A DNA stretch of 40,054 nucleotides from a virus (lineage: Duplodnaviria; Caudoviricetes), in IMG/VR virus record IMGVR_UViG_3300048575_000517, positions 1 through 40,054 of that record; one strand, written 5' to 3'. A program made the position numbers and the translations under genes. Positions 490 to 40,054 of this stretch are shown here, piece after piece. Under the pieces are notes generated by a model. The model did not search any database, was not told the DNA's origin, and saw nothing but the letters and a program-made list of their open reading frames with translations. How positions within the stretch are numbered: position 1 is the stretch's first letter; every line of letters starts with the position of its first letter.

Positions 490-1468
490 GCCGGAATCCC
501 CCTGAGCAGGTGGTCGGTGATTGTAACAAGGTCAGTACGTCCTGCCGCGCACGCGGTTCCCAACCAGCATAATGTAAGACACCCCGACCATACACGGCGT
601 CGTACTCAAGCCACCGGTCAGCCATCGCGATGATCGACGCTTCGAGGCTTTGCGTTTGGCACAGTCCCCGCCCTTCCGGAGTGCCAGTGGCGCCGCTCAG
701 GATGTGCATGAGGGCGATCCGGTGGGGTTTCGGCAGATCGATCGGGTAGCGAGACAGCGCAGCGGTGAGCCATTCGACGACGGTCATCCGGTGGCCGACG
801 AGTTGCCCGTACTCGGTTTCGACGAAGCGGTCCCGAGCGGGGTCGAGCCGGTAGCGCTCGGCCTTTCCGGCATCGCGCAGCAGGCTGCCGAGGATGAGCA
901 GCGCAGGAAAGACCTGTCGGTGCCCGGCGGCGATGCGCAGGGCGGCTTCGGCCAGTTCGACGCTACGCCGCAGGTTGCCGTTCATCTGCGCGTAGGGTCC
1001 GCTCAACGCCGCCGGTCCGGCGGCGAACCACAGCAGGCGCTGAGGATCGTGAAAGATGGCGTTGAGGAGTCGTTTGAACCGGCGCGGCAGGCGATTGACG
1101 AGGGCCCGCGCACGGTCGACGAGCGTTATGTCGGGGATCAGCGGCGGCGGAACGGTATCGAAGAGATTGACGCGCTCGTCGGGCGCATCGACCGGCACCA
1201 GACGGGCGATGTGCAGCGCCCCGTCTTCGCAGACGGGCGCGCGATCCCAGCGGATGGCGACCAGCGCGAGTTTCTGAATGCGCGGGTCGATGCTGCTGCA
1301 GGTCCAGGCGACGCGCGGACTCAGATGACGGTGATAGAGGGTGGCGGTGCAGCAGATCAGGGTGTCGCTGATCGCGACACGCTTGATGTCGAGCACCCGA
1401 TACGCCGAGGGCATCGATTCGGGCCGGACGGTCTTGCCATCGATGAAGAAGGACAGGGTTTCAGGCAT
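482..1468 (-). CDS. HD-domain (YhaM-like) protein with degenerate metal ligands
   Basis: GNLRRS...LLRDAGK...VGH...SLEASIIAMAD follows the HD pattern GLLEHS...LLHDIGK...EA..ADD; overlaps the int stop. Confidence 0.7.
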   Translation of the reverse strand: MPETLSFFIDGKTVRPESMPSAYRVLDIKRVAISDTLICCTATLYHRHLSPRVAWTCSSIDPRIQKLALVAIRWDRAPVCEDGALHIARLVPVDAPDERVNLFDTVPPPLIPDITLVDRARALVNRLPRRFKRLLNAIFHDPQRLLWFAAGPAALSGPYAQMNGNLRRSVELAEAALRIAAGHRQVFPALLILGSLLRDAGKAERYRLDPARDRFVETEYGQLVGHRMTVVEWLTAALSRYPIDLPKPHRIALMHILSGATGTPEGRGLCQTQSLEASIIAMADRWLEYDAVYGRGVLHYAGWEPRARQDVLTLLQSPTTCSGGFRHE

Positions 1469-2717
1469 GTTCCTTCTCCTTCGCGGCCAGTTGAATCTGC
1501 CGTTCGGCGTTGCCGAGAACGCCGGTCAGCAGGCGCTCGAAGGCGGAGCCGTCGCGCCGGGTAAGGTTGGGAACATAGCGGCTGTAGACGCGGAAGAGCA
1601 TTTCCGTGGTGGTGTGGCCGAGTTGGCGTGCGATCCACTCGGGCGCTTCGCCGCTCGCCAGCCACAGGGTCGCGGCGGTATGCCGGCACTGGTAGGGGCG
1701 CCTGACCTTGAGGCCGAGATGGCGCAACAGCGGCTTCCAGACGCGGTTGGTGACGTTCTTGTAGTCGAGCGGCTTTCCGTCGCGGTTGCAGAAGACGAAC
1801 TTGGAGAGCGAACGGGTGCCCTTCTCCTGTTCCTTGAGCGCGTCGTAGACGAGCTGGCTCATCTGGATGTCGCGCTGGCTGCCGTCGGTCTTGGTGTACT
1901 CCTCTTCGCCGTCAACTATGGTTTCCCGCACAAGGATCAGCCGGCGTTCGAAGTCGACGTATTTCCATTGCAGGCCGTTCACTTCGCCCGTGCGCATGCC
2001 CGTGAAGAAACGGACGATCAGGTAGTTCCTGAAATCCGCACGAACGGTATCAATCAGCCGCTTCACCTCGTCGAGCGAGAACGGTTCGACGTCGACACGC
2101 TTGACCTTGAGCTGTTTGATATTCTGGAAAGGCATGCGAAAATCAAAGCGGTCGGCGGCTTCCCCGAGTATCTGCCTCAACGGATTCAAGATCTTGTTGA
2201 TGCGCGGGTTGGACAACATGCTGCTCTTGCCCCGTGCCTGAACTTTGGCGAGATCTGCACGGAACGAGAGGATGTCTGCCTTGGTGATCCTGCCGACCTC
2301 CTGATCACCAAAACGCGGAACCAGCAACTTGTCGACATCGTCGCGGACGGTCTTCTTGTGCGACGCCCTCCATTCCACCGACTTCTCGGCGAACCACGTT
2401 TCAGCAAAGTCCTTGAACAGCGGGGTCGCTTTGATATCGCCCTGCTCCGTGCTCACACCTGCTTGAGCAAATGGCGTAGCCTGAGCATCGAGCGTCGGCT
2501 GGTCGAACTTGACCGCATTCTTGCTGTTGGGGAAGAAGTCTCGGTAGTTGAACGTGCCGACACTGATCGCTTCTTCTATCCGGGTCAGAACTTTGGCGAG
2601 ACGCTTCCTATTCGCCGGTGAGTCCAACAGTGCGGTCTGCTCTCTGCAGCGTTCTCCCTGGAATCGGAAGTCGATGAACAAGAGTCCCGTATCACTGCGG
2701 CGACGAATGCTACCCAT
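1461..2717 (-). CDS. int: Tyrosine recombinase/integrase with N-terminal arm-binding domain
   Basis: GMRTGE, TKT, YQCRHT, QLGH, VYSRY catalytic motifs; GGAGGAG SD before MGSIRRR. Confidence 0.95.
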   Translation of the reverse strand: MGSIRRRSDTGLLFIDFRFQGERCREQTALLDSPANRKRLAKVLTRIEEAISVGTFNYRDFFPNSKNAVKFDQPTLDAQATPFAQAGVSTEQGDIKATPLFKDFAETWFAEKSVEWRASHKKTVRDDVDKLLVPRFGDQEVGRITKADILSFRADLAKVQARGKSSMLSNPRINKILNPLRQILGEAADRFDFRMPFQNIKQLKVKRVDVEPFSLDEVKRLIDTVRADFRNYLIVRFFTGMRTGEVNGLQWKYVDFERRLILVRETIVDGEEEYTKTDGSQRDIQMSQLVYDALKEQEKGTRSLSKFVFCNRDGKPLDYKNVTNRVWKPLLRHLGLKVRRPYQCRHTAATLWLASGEAPEWIARQLGHTTTEMLFRVYSRYVPNLTRRDGSAFERLLTGVLGNAERQIQLAAKEKEHA

Positions 2718-2943
2718 TGCAGACTCCTCCATTGGCCATCGGAATAGAAAAGCTCTGCGTCGCTACGTTACCCATGTCCGCTTCGATTTTCTCCCAGATG
2801 TAGAGGATCTTCCTGCCGCCAAACGGGCGGATGTAATGAATCCCTTCCAGTAGGACACTGTCCTTCATCCTCTCCCGAATGGTTCGAGAATCGTATTTGA
2901 TCCGAGACGACAGTTCGTCGGTCGTAAGATAAGTTGCAGCCAT
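2710..2943 (-). CDS. Excisionase-like winged-HTH protein
   Basis: 77 aa, YLTTDELSSRIKYDSRTI helix pattern, directly upstream of and overlapping int; AGGAG SD. Confidence 0.8.
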   Translation of the reverse strand: MAATYLTTDELSSRIKYDSRTIRERMKDSVLLEGIHYIRPFGGRKILYIWEKIEADMGNVATQSFSIPMANGGVCNG

Positions 2944-33843: not shown

Positions 33844-34169
33844 TCACCCACGCCGCCTACCACGCCGCGTACCCGCTGCCGGACTTCGGCGCTCCACTTC
33901 GCATCGAGACCGCGCACGAGCCTGCAGTTGGCATCGGCCGCGTGCACCGCATCGCCGTGCGCGCCGATAGCGCGCCGAAGATCGCCACCAACGACGAGAT
34001 CCTCGCCGCGCTCAGCACGACCGAGTACCGCGGCGCGTCGTACATCGCCGATGCGCTCGGGGTGTGCCCGCAGACGGTCGGCGCGAAGATGGTCACGCCG
34101 GCCATAGCGATCGTCACCGAAAAGCGCATCAGCGGGCGCGGCGGGAAGTATGAATGGAGGCTGCTGTGA
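33840..34169 (+). CDS. Hypothetical protein with a C-terminal wHTH-like segment
   Basis: ASYIADALGVCPQTVGAKM; ATGA coupling. Confidence 0.6.
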   Translation: MITHAAYHAAYPLPDFGAPLRIETAHEPAVGIGRVHRIAVRADSAPKIATNDEILAALSTTEYRGASYIADALGVCPQTVGAKMVTPAIAIVTEKRISGRGGKYEWRLL

Positions 34170-34206: not shown

Positions 34207-35202
34207 ATGACATGGCTCTACATACCATCGAGCTTTGCAGCGGCGTCGGAATGCTCGGCGAAGGACTGCGAGCCGGGCTCGCCTACCTGGGCCTTGAGAA
34301 TCGCACCTGTGTCCACGTTGAGCGGGAAGCTTACGCAGCCGCCGTCCTGGTCGCGCGCATGGAAGAAGGCAGCCTGGATGCGGCACCTGTCTGGCCCGAC
34401 CTATGCACCTTCGACGCTCGCGCTTGGCGTGGAAAAGTGGATTGCGTCGTTGCCGGATTCCCCTGCCAGGACTTGTCTGTTGCCGGCCGGCGCGCCGGAC
34501 TCGACGGCAAGCGCTCTGGACTCTTCTTCGAAGTCGTGCGGATCGCTACCGATAGCGGTGCGCGGCTCATGTTTCTGGAGAACGTCGCAGGCATCGCTTC
34601 TGCCACCGCCGCCGCTCTGGACGAAGCCGAAGGCGAGCTCGAAGAGCGCGCCGCCGCCCGCGTCGTGGGAGAACTGGCCGACCTCGGGTGGGATTCGGAG
34701 TGGATCACTCTATCAGCGTCCGACGTGGGCGCCAGCCACGGCAGAGCAAGGTGGTTTTGCCTTGCGTGGCGAGAACTTGCCCTCGCCTCGCGGCACGGAC
34801 GGCACCAAGGGCGGCCCGAATCAGGCCGGGAGCAAGGGCGACTTGATGCTGACGAGCGCGGCGTGCCAGTGGCCGACGCCGACAGCTCAGGATTGCGAGC
34901 AAGCGGGGAGCGCGAATGCAGGGCATTTCACGCTGCATCGGGCGGCGTCGGACTATTCGCCCCTGGCCCAGCCGACCCGCGATGGGCAGGAATCATCGCC
35001 GACTACCCCTACCTCGCGCCGGCACTTGAACCCGCTTTTCGCTGCGTGGTTAATGGGCTGGCCTTCGACATGGGCGATTGCCGAGCCGCACGCCTCAAGT
35101 GCGCAGGAAACGGCGTTGTGGCGCTGCAAGCTGCAGCAGCATTTGTCGTCCTTGCTCGGCGAGCAGGACTTGTCTGACCTGGCGATACGGAGGGCAGCAT
35201 GA
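34207..35202 (+). CDS. Putative second (beta) chain of the C5 methyltransferase in an alternative frame: motif IX-like segment and WPTP modules
   Basis: Open 331 codons over the whole MTase; RHLNPLFAAWLMGWP; its stop overlaps the next ATG; true start uncertain. Confidence 0.7.
   Translation: MTWLYIPSSFAAASECSAKDCEPGSPTWALRIAPVSTLSGKLTQPPSWSRAWKKAAWMRHLSGPTYAPSTLALGVEKWIASLPDSPARTCLLPAGAPDSTASALDSSSKSCGSLPIAVRGSCFWRTSQASLLPPPPLWTKPKASSKSAPPPASWENWPTSGGIRSGSLYQRPTWAPATAEQGGFALRGENLPSPRGTDGTKGGPNQAGSKGDLMLTSAACQWPTPTAQDCEQAGSANAGHFTLHRAASDYSPLAQPTRDGQESSPTTPTSRRHLNPLFAAWLMGWPSTWAIAEPHASSAQETALWRCKLQQHLSSLLGEQDLSDLAIRRAA
34212..35177 (+). CDS. DNA cytosine-C5 methyltransferase, catalytic (alpha) chain
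   Basis: ELCSGVG (I), GFPCQDLS (IV), ENV (VI), HGRARW (VIII), RLKCAGNGV (X). Confidence 0.92.
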   Translation: MALHTIELCSGVGMLGEGLRAGLAYLGLENRTCVHVEREAYAAAVLVARMEEGSLDAAPVWPDLCTFDARAWRGKVDCVVAGFPCQDLSVAGRRAGLDGKRSGLFFEVVRIATDSGARLMFLENVAGIASATAAALDEAEGELEERAAARVVGELADLGWDSEWITLSASDVGASHGRARWFCLAWRELALASRHGRHQGRPESGREQGRLDADERGVPVADADSSGLRASGERECRAFHAASGGVGLFAPGPADPRWAGIIADYPYLAPALEPAFRCVVNGLAFDMGDCRAARLKCAGNGVVALQAAAAFVVLARRAGLV

Positions 35203-35705
35203 GCGACAAATCGAAAATCGAATGGACCGACGCGACGTGGCAGACGATCACCGCTGCCAAGCGCATCGGCATTTCGGAAAGCGAATATGTTCGGCAGTTG
35301 TCGTCAGGAAAGAAGTGGTGCACGGCATGCCGAGACTGGCACCCGCGAGATCAGTTCGGCAAGGATGCAAGCCGCGGCGATGGGCTGGCTTCGAAGTGCC
35401 TCGCATCTAAGCGTTGTGTCACGAAACGCGCTGCGCCGACCGCTCGAAAGAAGCGTGGATGGATGGCAGCGGTTCGCGATGGCGATAAGAAGCAGGCGCG
35501 GCGGAGAATCAACTACCTCGTCGAGACAAAAGCTATTCCGCATCCAGACGACCTGCCCTGCGTCGATTGTCTCGATGAAATTTTCTTGAACACCTACAGG
35601 CACGAGTACGACCACGCACGAGGGTATGACGGAGAAAATCAGTTCTACGTCGAACCAGTCTGCTCGCGATGCCACCACAACCGGGAGCAAGCGCGACATG
35701 GCTAA
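35199..35705 (+). CDS. Zn-finger HNH-type (homing-like) endonuclease
   Basis: KWCTAC...FGKD...DGLASKC N-domain; CVDC...HEYDH..GY...VCSRCH His-Me-finger-like C-domain; GGAGG SD. Confidence 0.7.
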   Translation: MSDKSKIEWTDATWQTITAAKRIGISESEYVRQLSSGKKWCTACRDWHPRDQFGKDASRGDGLASKCLASKRCVTKRAAPTARKKRGWMAAVRDGDKKQARRRINYLVETKAIPHPDDLPCVDCLDEIFLNTYRHEYDHARGYDGENQFYVEPVCSRCHHNREQARHG

Positions 35706-38883: not shown

Positions 38884-39161
38884 TATCCACCATGATGACC
38901 GACCTCAACAGACAACAACTCTGCGCGGCGCTCGGCATATCCGAATCAACCGTGCGCCGCCTCGAACTATCCGGCATGCCGTTTACCCCGGTAGGCATCC
39001 GCGCCAAGCGCTACAATCTTGACGAGGTCAAGCAATGGCTCAGGGGTAATCCATGTCTATCTGGACCGAAAACTGTCGAATCCACGTCGGCATCATGGTC
39101 GGCGGGAAGCGCATTCACAGACGCCTGCCGGAAGGTGCATCTAAGAGTGATGCCAAGCTGA
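38880..39161 (+). CDS. xis: Excisionase-like HTH protein
   Basis: LNRQQLCAALGISESTVRRL...RYNLDEVKQWL; precedes int; start may be 38892. Confidence 0.8.
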   Translation: MISTMMTDLNRQQLCAALGISESTVRRLELSGMPFTPVGIRAKRYNLDEVKQWLRGNPCLSGPKTVESTSASWSAGSAFTDACRKVHLRVMPS

Positions 39162-40054
39162 TCGAAGCCGAGCTGCGCAAGGCAGCTGGCACGCGGCACG
39201 TCTCCATCCCCGGCGACCCGCCGCTTTCCGTAGTCATGGACCTCTATATCGAGCACGCTAGATCACTCAGAAGTCCGGACACCGCCGTATATCACGCCCT
39301 GCGCACCGGCCCCTGGTGCGAAGGTTACAAGGCCAGCCAGGCTCCCGAGGTCGCCGCCAAGATGATCGCCGACCTCAAGAAAGCCTATGCGCCGGCGACC
39401 ATCAACCGCTCGATCGGCGCGTTCAAGACCGCCCTTAAGCTCGCCCACGAGCGAAAAATAACGCCGGCCAACTACGGCGAGACGATCAAGCGCCTGCCCG
39501 AAAACAACCAGCGGCACAACTACCTGGCCATCGACGCCGTCAAGCGCCTTGGCGACTGCTGCTCTGAACAGGTGCGCGCGGCCGTGTGGATCGCACTGCT
39601 CACCGGCTGCCGTCGCGGCGAGATACTCAAGCTCAAGCGCGAAGACATCCTCGGCGACCGGCTGCGCATCAGGTCGGGGAACACCAAGACACTGCGCGAA
39701 CGCTCGTGCCCGATCGTCCCGGCGCTGCGCCCGTGGCTCGAGTTCGTTCCGCTGCAGATTAACTTCGAGGGACTCAAGACAGGATTTCGGCGGGCGCGCG
39801 AAAAGGCCGGCCTCGACGTGAATTTCCACGATCTGCGCCACTCGTGCGCCAGCCTGCTCATCAACATGGGCGTACAGCTCGAGGTTATCCGCGACATCCT
39901 CGGGCACACCACCGTCAAGACGACCGAGCGCTACGCGCACCTGCGACTCGACCGCCAGGACGATGCGATGCGTAGGCTATCCGACGCAGTTTCGGTGCAA
40001 ATTACACCGAAGATTACACCGGAAAACAAAAAGGCCACCGAGCAGGTGGCCTAA
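39053..40054 (+). CDS. int: Prophage tyrosine integrase
   Basis: GCRRGE, TKT, HDLRH, LGH, RYAH catalytic residues. Confidence 0.95.
   Translation: MSIWTENCRIHVGIMVGGKRIHRRLPEGASKSDAKLIEAELRKAAGTRHVSIPGDPPLSVVMDLYIEHARSLRSPDTAVYHALRTGPWCEGYKASQAPEVAAKMIADLKKAYAPATINRSIGAFKTALKLAHERKITPANYGETIKRLPENNQRHNYLAIDAVKRLGDCCSEQVRAAVWIALLTGCRRGEILKLKREDILGDRLRIRSGNTKTLRERSCPIVPALRPWLEFVPLQINFEGLKTGFRRAREKAGLDVNFHDLRHSCASLLINMGVQLEVIRDILGHTTVKTTERYAHLRLDRQDDAMRRLSDAVSVQITPKITPENKKATEQVA
40002..40022 (+). repeat. TTACACCG x2; probable arm-type sites (right end) inside int
   Basis: Copies at 40002 and 40014 matching 3627 and 3638. Confidence 0.7.
40023..40052 (-). terminator. Intrinsic terminator on the minus strand, placed to stop the tRNA transcript entering from the right
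   Basis: AGGCCACC-5 nt-GGTGGCCT followed by TTTTGTTTT on the minus strand. Confidence 0.7.

Follow-up and report, generated by a model that had tools for sequence, protein, structure and literature searches.

A DNA cytosine-5 methyltransferase gene of a provirus is open in two overlapping reading frames from end to end, and this two-frame gene is real and conserved among its relatives. Sequence comparison suggests that the two products, here called A and B, are probably two chains that assemble into one DNA cytosine-5 methyltransferase, with B giving motif IX and the recognition part. The window, by which we mean the whole analyzed stretch of 40,054 bases, is a complete-looking provirus record with a GC content of 66% and numerous long spurious ORFs. 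Its 32 scanned ORFs include lambdoid head, tail and terminase genes as well as a primase and integrases, and the methylase locus sits within a run of plus-strand early-type genes. The features of the locus are as follows.

34207-35202, plus strand: frame B ORF, 331 aa, likely second chain with recognition part and motif IX (translation, PHROG, homologues)
34212-35177, plus strand: frame A ORF, 321 aa, catalytic chain bearing motifs I-VIII and motif X (translation, Pfam, alignment, model)
34207-34214, plus strand: paired starts ATGAC-ATG, B first and A 5 nt on (sequence, offsets in relatives)
34230-34250, plus strand: A motif I (ELCSGVG), G11 and G13 invariant
34455-34469, plus strand: A motif IV (GFPCQ) with catalytic Cys85; intein site in the relative L030 (alignment)
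34555-34704, plus strand: conserved B block, residues 117-166 (FWRTS...PPPPLW...SWENWP...G.R.G), lying over A motifs VI-VII (conservation)
34578-34586, plus strand: A motif VI (ENV) (alignment)
34737-34751, plus strand: A motif VIII (HGRAR) (alignment)
34773-34949, plus strand: A residues 188-246, unconserved linker, predicted disordered (conservation, 4-fold sites, model)
34777-34869, plus strand: B module 1, LPSPRGTDGTKGGPNQAGSKG type, common to 14 other loci, duplicates included (module comparison)
34870-34956, plus strand: B module 2, WPTPTAQD type (translation, module comparison)
35020-35073, plus strand: B motif-IX-like segment, residues 272-289 (conservation, profile alignments)
35106-35120, plus strand: A motif X core (GNGVV) (alignment)
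35199-35202, plus strand: ATG of the next gene overlapping the frame B stop (ATGA) (sequence, ORF list, 27-locus comparison)

The catalytic chain and the frame that overlaps it

As evidenced by a PF00145 match and by alignments, frame A is open and carries motifs I, IV, VI, VIII and X without motif IX, as a preliminary description of the sequence had stated. The Pfam match covers residues 4-188 only (E 8.6e-26) and the alignment to M.HhaI reaches through motif VIII. Motifs I, IV (PC), VI (ENV) and VIII follow in order on a predicted SAM-dependent catalytic fold, as in C5 DNA methyltransferases. The predicted structure, which matches about 185 columns of M.HhaI and M.HaeIII, is confident for residues 1-190 and 301-321, and pLDDT falls below 50 for residues 191-252 and 265-299. 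Motif X (A299-303) has invariant G299, N300 and V302, and its alignment to M.HhaI is weak. Neither the PF00145 search nor the alignments of the A profile matched motif IX in frame A; the profile aligns only near motif X. Unlike the ordinary PF00145 layout, motif IX and the variable region are not in the catalytic chain, and A residues 188-246 are a shadow of the modules encoded in B. Three relatives (L063, L089 and L091) have frame A stops between motifs VIII and X with B intact. In these loci the W-P-T codons of the modules can read ATG/GTG-GCC-GAC in frame A, which could restart a separate motif X piece and give a three-piece enzyme.

Frame B is the +1 frame of A. It runs from 34207 to 35202 and, as previously described, is open throughout; frame A likewise has no internal stop. 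B begins 5 nt before A and ends 25 nt after it, and the reported pair of starts 5 nt apart is present as ATGACATG at 34207-34214. Upstream of this start, too, the B frame lacks stops for roughly 100 nt. Despite an in-frame ATG at 34150 in the window, B starts at an offset of -5/-2 relative to A in most close relatives, and a start at this position followed by W is conserved in the window's clade. A Shine-Dalgarno scan did not separate the B start from the A start by strength.

The B protein has 903 relatives and matches PHROG 1008 'DNA methyltransferase' (E 1e-15), with no match in Pfam, NCBIfam or PADLOC. Neither B nor its profiles found a meaningful match among PDB sequences; hits to MS2 coat and ChlH were rejected as short and resembling chance. 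Modeled alone, B has low confidence (pLDDT 58.7, pTM 0.28) and no fold match. Such a poor lone fold would be expected of a partner-dependent chain, yet it is no evidence for one. Part of the conserved N-terminal sequence of B, and likewise part of the block at residues 117-166, is a by-product of A's motifs. B also keeps a conserved tail after motif IX.

The suggestion that frame B holds a sequence resembling motif IX is borne out by RHLNPLFAAWLMGWP at 35020-35064 and by profile alignments. All of 77 B sequences share L274, N275, P276, F278, L282, M283 and G284, and a profile of 83 B segments aligned to the canonical motif IX of the relative L196 with an HHalign probability of 88 (E 3e-6). Alignment of the B profile to motif IX of two plasmid restriction-modification (R-M) methylases was weak (E 0.046 and 0.1). 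In nine relatives that have both in one frame, the IX segment and motif X are contiguous, as in canonical enzymes. A profile of IX plus X from these nine had as its sole PDB matches the DNA methyltransferase entries 4onj/4onq, and these were weak (E 0.39).

The next gene does begin in an ATGA at 35199, as described, and the coupling to the stop of B was considered as evidence specific to B. This was rejected, since a comparison of 27 loci showed that coupling goes with whichever frame ends last (13 of 15 loci where B is last, 9 of 12 where A is last). The downstream ORF (35199-35705, 168 aa) has weak, nuclease-like PHROG matches, of the endonuclease VII/Lar type, and its first 23 residues resemble the start of a DUF5131 protein (E 9e-4). 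A DUF5131 gene follows directly. From its sequence, the ORF resembles a nuclease that has entered the 5' end of the DUF5131 gene. No restriction enzyme was identified beside the methylase gene, the next ORF giving no restriction-enzyme match, in agreement with the phage orphan version proposed earlier. Integrase genes in opposite orientation lie at both record ends, at 1461-2732 (minus strand) and 39053-40054 (plus strand), and a second element may be the source of the left one. We also considered four-base palindrome bias in the window as a guide to the methylation target and rejected it, as the values (GGCC 0.78, CTAG 0.38) point to no site.

Frame B is open far beyond chance in relatives

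Openness was compared with a chance model in which the A protein is fixed, synonymous codons are random and +1 stops are counted. Applied to the window by itself, the model predicts 3.8 stops in frame B where there are none (P 0.014, or 0.002 with A's own codon usage), a result that is only suggestive. In control genes of the window the +1 stops are mostly near or slightly under expectation (e.g. 6 vs 7.4, 7 vs 6.5 and 8 vs 5.5), and +1 stops number 28 in one plasmid R-M methylase and at least 40 in the other. A first sample of 38 sequences, comprising the window and 37 mostly B-found homologues with duplicates dropped, contained 3 +1 stops within A codons 1-187 compared with 97 expected. All three fall in loci where B starts just after the start of A, leaving none inside B.

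Because a sample found with B is biased towards B, we resampled with the A alignment only. Taking the best 80 of 563 relatives from one scan and the best 80 of 573 from another yielded 160 loci. Contig ends truncated 25 of these and one was broken, so that 134 were complete and 133 distinct, with GC from about 0.40 to 0.73. Over codons 50-100 after the catalytic Cys, the surroundings of motif VIII (6,615 codons), these 133 loci have no +1 stop compared with 165 expected. In the +2 frame the same codons hold 244 stops vs 327 expected. The loci share kinship and their counts therefore overstate independence. That both frames stay open across homologues, which the preliminary description proposed as a check, is confirmed, and the openness of frame B in relatives is far beyond chance.

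In one relative, L030, the catalytic Cys of frame A is the insertion site of a 337-aa intein (positions 1291-2301; Hint_2, E 7e-10). Across it there are no +1 stops compared with 10.6 expected (P about 2e-6), and the +2 frame has 24 vs 24.7. It is difficult to account for this openness without translation of B from its N-terminal start. The B product of L030 would carry a 337-aa insertion unable to splice. A search for relatives of the intein returned L030 alone, so this result concerns one locus.

The second proposed check concerned suppressed synonymous variation, and its outcome was divided. Over A motifs I-IV, the excess identity at 4-fold sites is 0.24-0.55 in the window's clade vs 0.01-0.06 in 14 single-coded loci. 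Neighboring genes reach 0.14-0.46 in the same identity bands (4-24 pairs per band), so the suppression stands above the single-coded control but not above the neighboring genes. For B residues 1-110 the outcome is mixed: openness and the start are shown, and amino-acid selection is not part of the result.

Variable modules and layouts among relatives

The repeated (W/L)P(T/S)P modules noted earlier are present, though the window has just two, LPSP at B191 and, 31 aa further on, WPTP at B222. Across 27 loci, B carries one to seven (W/L)x(T/S)P modules, mostly spaced 24-49 aa, and the lengths of A and B co-vary, the window with its two modules being the shortest. Module types recur in varied combinations across loci. 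In 28 two-frame loci, the 4-fold sites of B residues 191-250 are near saturation (0.45-0.57 vs 0.40 expected) and those of A residues 188-246 are almost fixed (0.87-0.98). This indicates that the module region is selected for B, with A as passenger.

The notion that the modules set specificity gained indirect support from their position, their variability and the selection on B; a significant match to a TRD was not obtained. Comparison with known recognition domains, including the T-L region of the two plasmid R-M methylases, gave no significant match, and of eight proteins scanned, the B of one relative (L122) aligns weakly to Pfam positions 197-316 (E 0.033). The weakest step of our reading is that the modules may be target-recognition domains, as their place before motif IX, their variability, the L122 alignment and the example of the multispecific Bacillus phage enzymes suggest. 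Going further, B could tentatively be seen as a separate, modular specificity subunit, overprinted on the catalytic gene over its full length, in which cassettes of about 30 aa are gained, lost and shuffled, A serves as a passive linker, slippage at poly-G runs in some cassettes switches the enzyme on and off and the point at which IX and X pass from one frame to the other has moved repeatedly. We hold this extended picture to be a little less probable than even.

The layouts vary. Among the 133 A-found loci, a motif-IX HMM matched the +1 frame in 95 and frame A in 5; 33 had no match at the threshold, and in many of these a segment resembling IX can be seen on inspection. B is open end to end in 68 of the 95 and starts at codons 9-90 in the other 27. 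A start codon plus an aromatic residue near the start of A was found in 58 of the 68, most often at +4 (34 loci). In a quick-method tree of the catalytic core (166 rows), the end-to-end overlap forms one branch (111 of 114 rows, SH-aLRT 98). Among 36 complete distinct loci found with B or with its close A, 28 share the window layout, one is distant with a later B start, two have IX in A and five are frame-swapped (L006, L007, L013, L022 and L038).

L108, L131 and L203 have IX and X in frame A, and their B, consisting of the N-terminal block and modules, is still open. L005 and L017 resemble them in having IX in frame A. As these five loci keep B modules with IX in A, the modules matter in their own right. 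In L005 and L017 a long insertion follows the A-frame motif IX and precedes motif X. A further sub-type (L125, L193 and L196) has a canonical motif IX outside the +1 frame yet keeps a +1 ORF of 160-170 codons, which ends in a conserved SLLS.(I/V)LE...KYSLS.KAAQGILRRA.

Frame swaps occur at runs of 6-15 G in all five B-found swapped loci, in the 5'-cut L010 and in the A-found L079, L085, L149 and L162. The runs fall in Gly-coding parts of modules (L006:3506, L007/L037:3359, L010:1290, L013:1030, L022:3492 and L038:2328). L078 (G10, intact) and L085 (G9, swapped) differ by a single internal gap, located in the G-run, and the broken loci L074 and L159 have no such run. Among intact loci, 3 of the 96 found with A and 5 of the 29 found with B contain runs of at least 7 G; the longest G run in the window gene is 4. 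The swaps may represent phase variation, i.e. an on/off switch, or assembly error. Sequencing runs searched for L037 with regard to G-run length variation gave shares of only 0.16 or less. Since a swap harms both A and B, swaps do not prove B dispensable.

A probable two-chain enzyme, rival readings and known systems

A two-chain reading like that of M.EcoHK31I, already put forward in the preliminary description, is supported by the conserved start of B, its freedom from stops and the presence of motif IX in B and not in A. As a mechanism, both starts, being 5 nt apart, would be used from one initiation region, yielding roughly matched amounts of the chains. The N-terminal helices and conserved block of B would bind A, and its motif IX would pack with motif X of A. 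Each module of 26-45 aa with a (W/L)PTP signature might act as a target-recognition unit, the weakest element of the model; the number and type of modules would then set the methylated sequences, and A need only stay open across them. Orphan methylases of phages serve to protect phage DNA from host restriction, and the likely purpose here would be the same shielding.

A single chain made by two programmed frameshifts, from A to B after motif VIII and back to A after IX, would give the order I-VIII (A), modules and IX (B) and X (A), colinear with a canonical enzyme, and the five relatives with IX and X in the frame of A (L005, L017, L131, L203 and L108) agree with such a chain. The window gene, however, has neither a slippery heptamer nor a run of at least 5 identical bases, and a heptamer lies near the first junction in just 4 of 27 loci. 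Frameshifting also leaves unexplained the start of B, the missing stops before motif VIII, the open L030 intein and the tail after IX; under it the start and N-terminal half of B would need no conservation. This alternative, which had been raised alongside the two chains, is thus disfavored and we consider it quite improbable. No more probable is a version in which two chains are made but B starts internally, its N-terminal half being an untranslated shadow of A's motifs. Internal Met starts of the M.EcoHK31I β chain gave some activity, according to the accessible text of PMC2836561, 27 of the 95 A-found loci have a B that starts at codons 9-90, and synonymous suppression across motifs I-IV is no greater than in the neighboring-gene control. 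Against it stand the conserved -5/-2 start followed by W in the window's clade, the lack of any stop inside B where about 97 would be expected across A codons 1-187, and the open intein.

B could instead be a stabilizing or regulatory partner that holds motif IX, with A either holding specificity or working alone at low specificity. This is unlikely, though slightly less so than the two readings above: the predicted TRD of M.EcoHK31I is in the α chain (accessible parts of PMC3404938 and PMC2836561) and the modules have no significant match to known recognition domains. But the middle of A is unconserved, predicted disordered and breakable by stops, with selection there on B, and the modules lie directly before motif IX, in the place of the variable region, where the L122 B aligns weakly to Pfam 197-316 (E 0.033). 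Least probable by far is that frame B is open by chance, owing to the high GC content of the gene, and that A is a degenerate methylase. A GC content of 66%, many long spurious ORFs and a window-only P of 0.014 would fit, but not 0 vs 165 expected stops at GC of about 0.40 to 0.73, nor +1 stops near expectation in control genes and numbering 28 and 40 or more in the plasmid R-M methylases.

To our knowledge, an overlapping two-frame methylase layout has so far been proven for one E. coli enzyme only. This enzyme, M.EcoHK31I, of which Lee, Kam and Shaw reportedly gave the original account in 1995, is part of a restriction-modification system. Bacillus phages have multispecific C5 methyltransferases, a subject reportedly treated by Trautner et al. 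in 1996, in which short units that can be exchanged follow one another between motifs VIII and IX of a single chain and were reportedly shown to be TRDs. The modules described here may be of a comparable kind; they lie in an overlapping frame and their recognition role is inferred.

In the accessible parts of PMC3404938 and PMC2836561, M.EcoHK31I (E. coli, YGGCCR) is described as having a β chain encoded wholly in the alternate frame of α and carrying motif IX, an α chain with motifs I-VIII, X and a predicted TRD, and a requirement for both chains. N-terminal deletions of β weaken association, as far as the accessible text of PMC2836561 goes. Similarly, the present gene has I-VIII and X in one of two overlapping frames and IX in the other, here known from sequence. 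Unlike the smaller, nested EcoHK31I β, B (331 aa) is about as long as A (321 aa) and overhangs it, and it has variable modules (1-7 in relatives) whereas the predicted TRD of EcoHK31I is in α. The setting also differs, being a prophage with no restriction enzyme identified beside the gene. Lacking the nesting and the TRD placement, the gene represents a variant of that layout as described. A plasmid search for the EcoHK31I gene identified it in none of three regions; the two of these that were translated, L213 and L214, are ordinary single-chain enzymes of 415-421 aa.

M.AquI, a two-chain C5 methyltransferase split after motif VIII according to the accessible part of PMC3404938, likewise has a second chain with part of the variable region and motif IX. 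Unlike its I-VIII/IX-X split, the window keeps X in A. AquI-like splits occur in the relatives L116, L118, L120, L122, L123, L127, L130, L169, L177 and L208. Overlapping 'DNA methylase' pairs of actinobacteriophages (Corndog gp7/gp6 and Phanphagia 65/66) are distant B relatives (32-42% over part of the length), but overlap only partially (about 210-250 nt as annotated) and have an A that ends after motif VIII. For the closely related Acidovorax phage Alfacinha3, GenBank annotates one of the two frames. Full-length B relatives in Burkholderia phages (AY453853/NC_005284, OM892879, PV072766 and PQ789827) bear conflicting labels, namely 'chromosome partitioning protein', 'gp67' and 'DNA methyltransferase'. 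The out-of-frame HNH within a phage methylase described in the accessible text of PMC11855218 is a different case, and the accessible parts of PMC5009743, PMC12707154 and PMC8227390 do not contain the two-frame layout. Our search of a literature collection with few subscription journals found no paper on this phage family.

The basic two-frame layout is already known; new here is a frame overlap much larger than in M.EcoHK31I. If the two-chain reading is true, annotation usually misses a second protein of 300-500 aa concealed in a very common phage gene, and many truncated-looking phage methylases are complete. The gene would then be a natural case in which the same bases encode both subunits of one enzyme from end to end, and its many divergent copies would make the co-evolution of overlapping frames directly testable. 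Should the modules be recognition units, they would offer small swappable parts for methylases of chosen specificity and a mechanism for phages to vary their defense against restriction. Finally, if the modular-subunit picture holds, one stretch of DNA would give rise to a family of one-, two- and three-piece enzymes, and phages would alter their methylation pattern via frame B cassettes.
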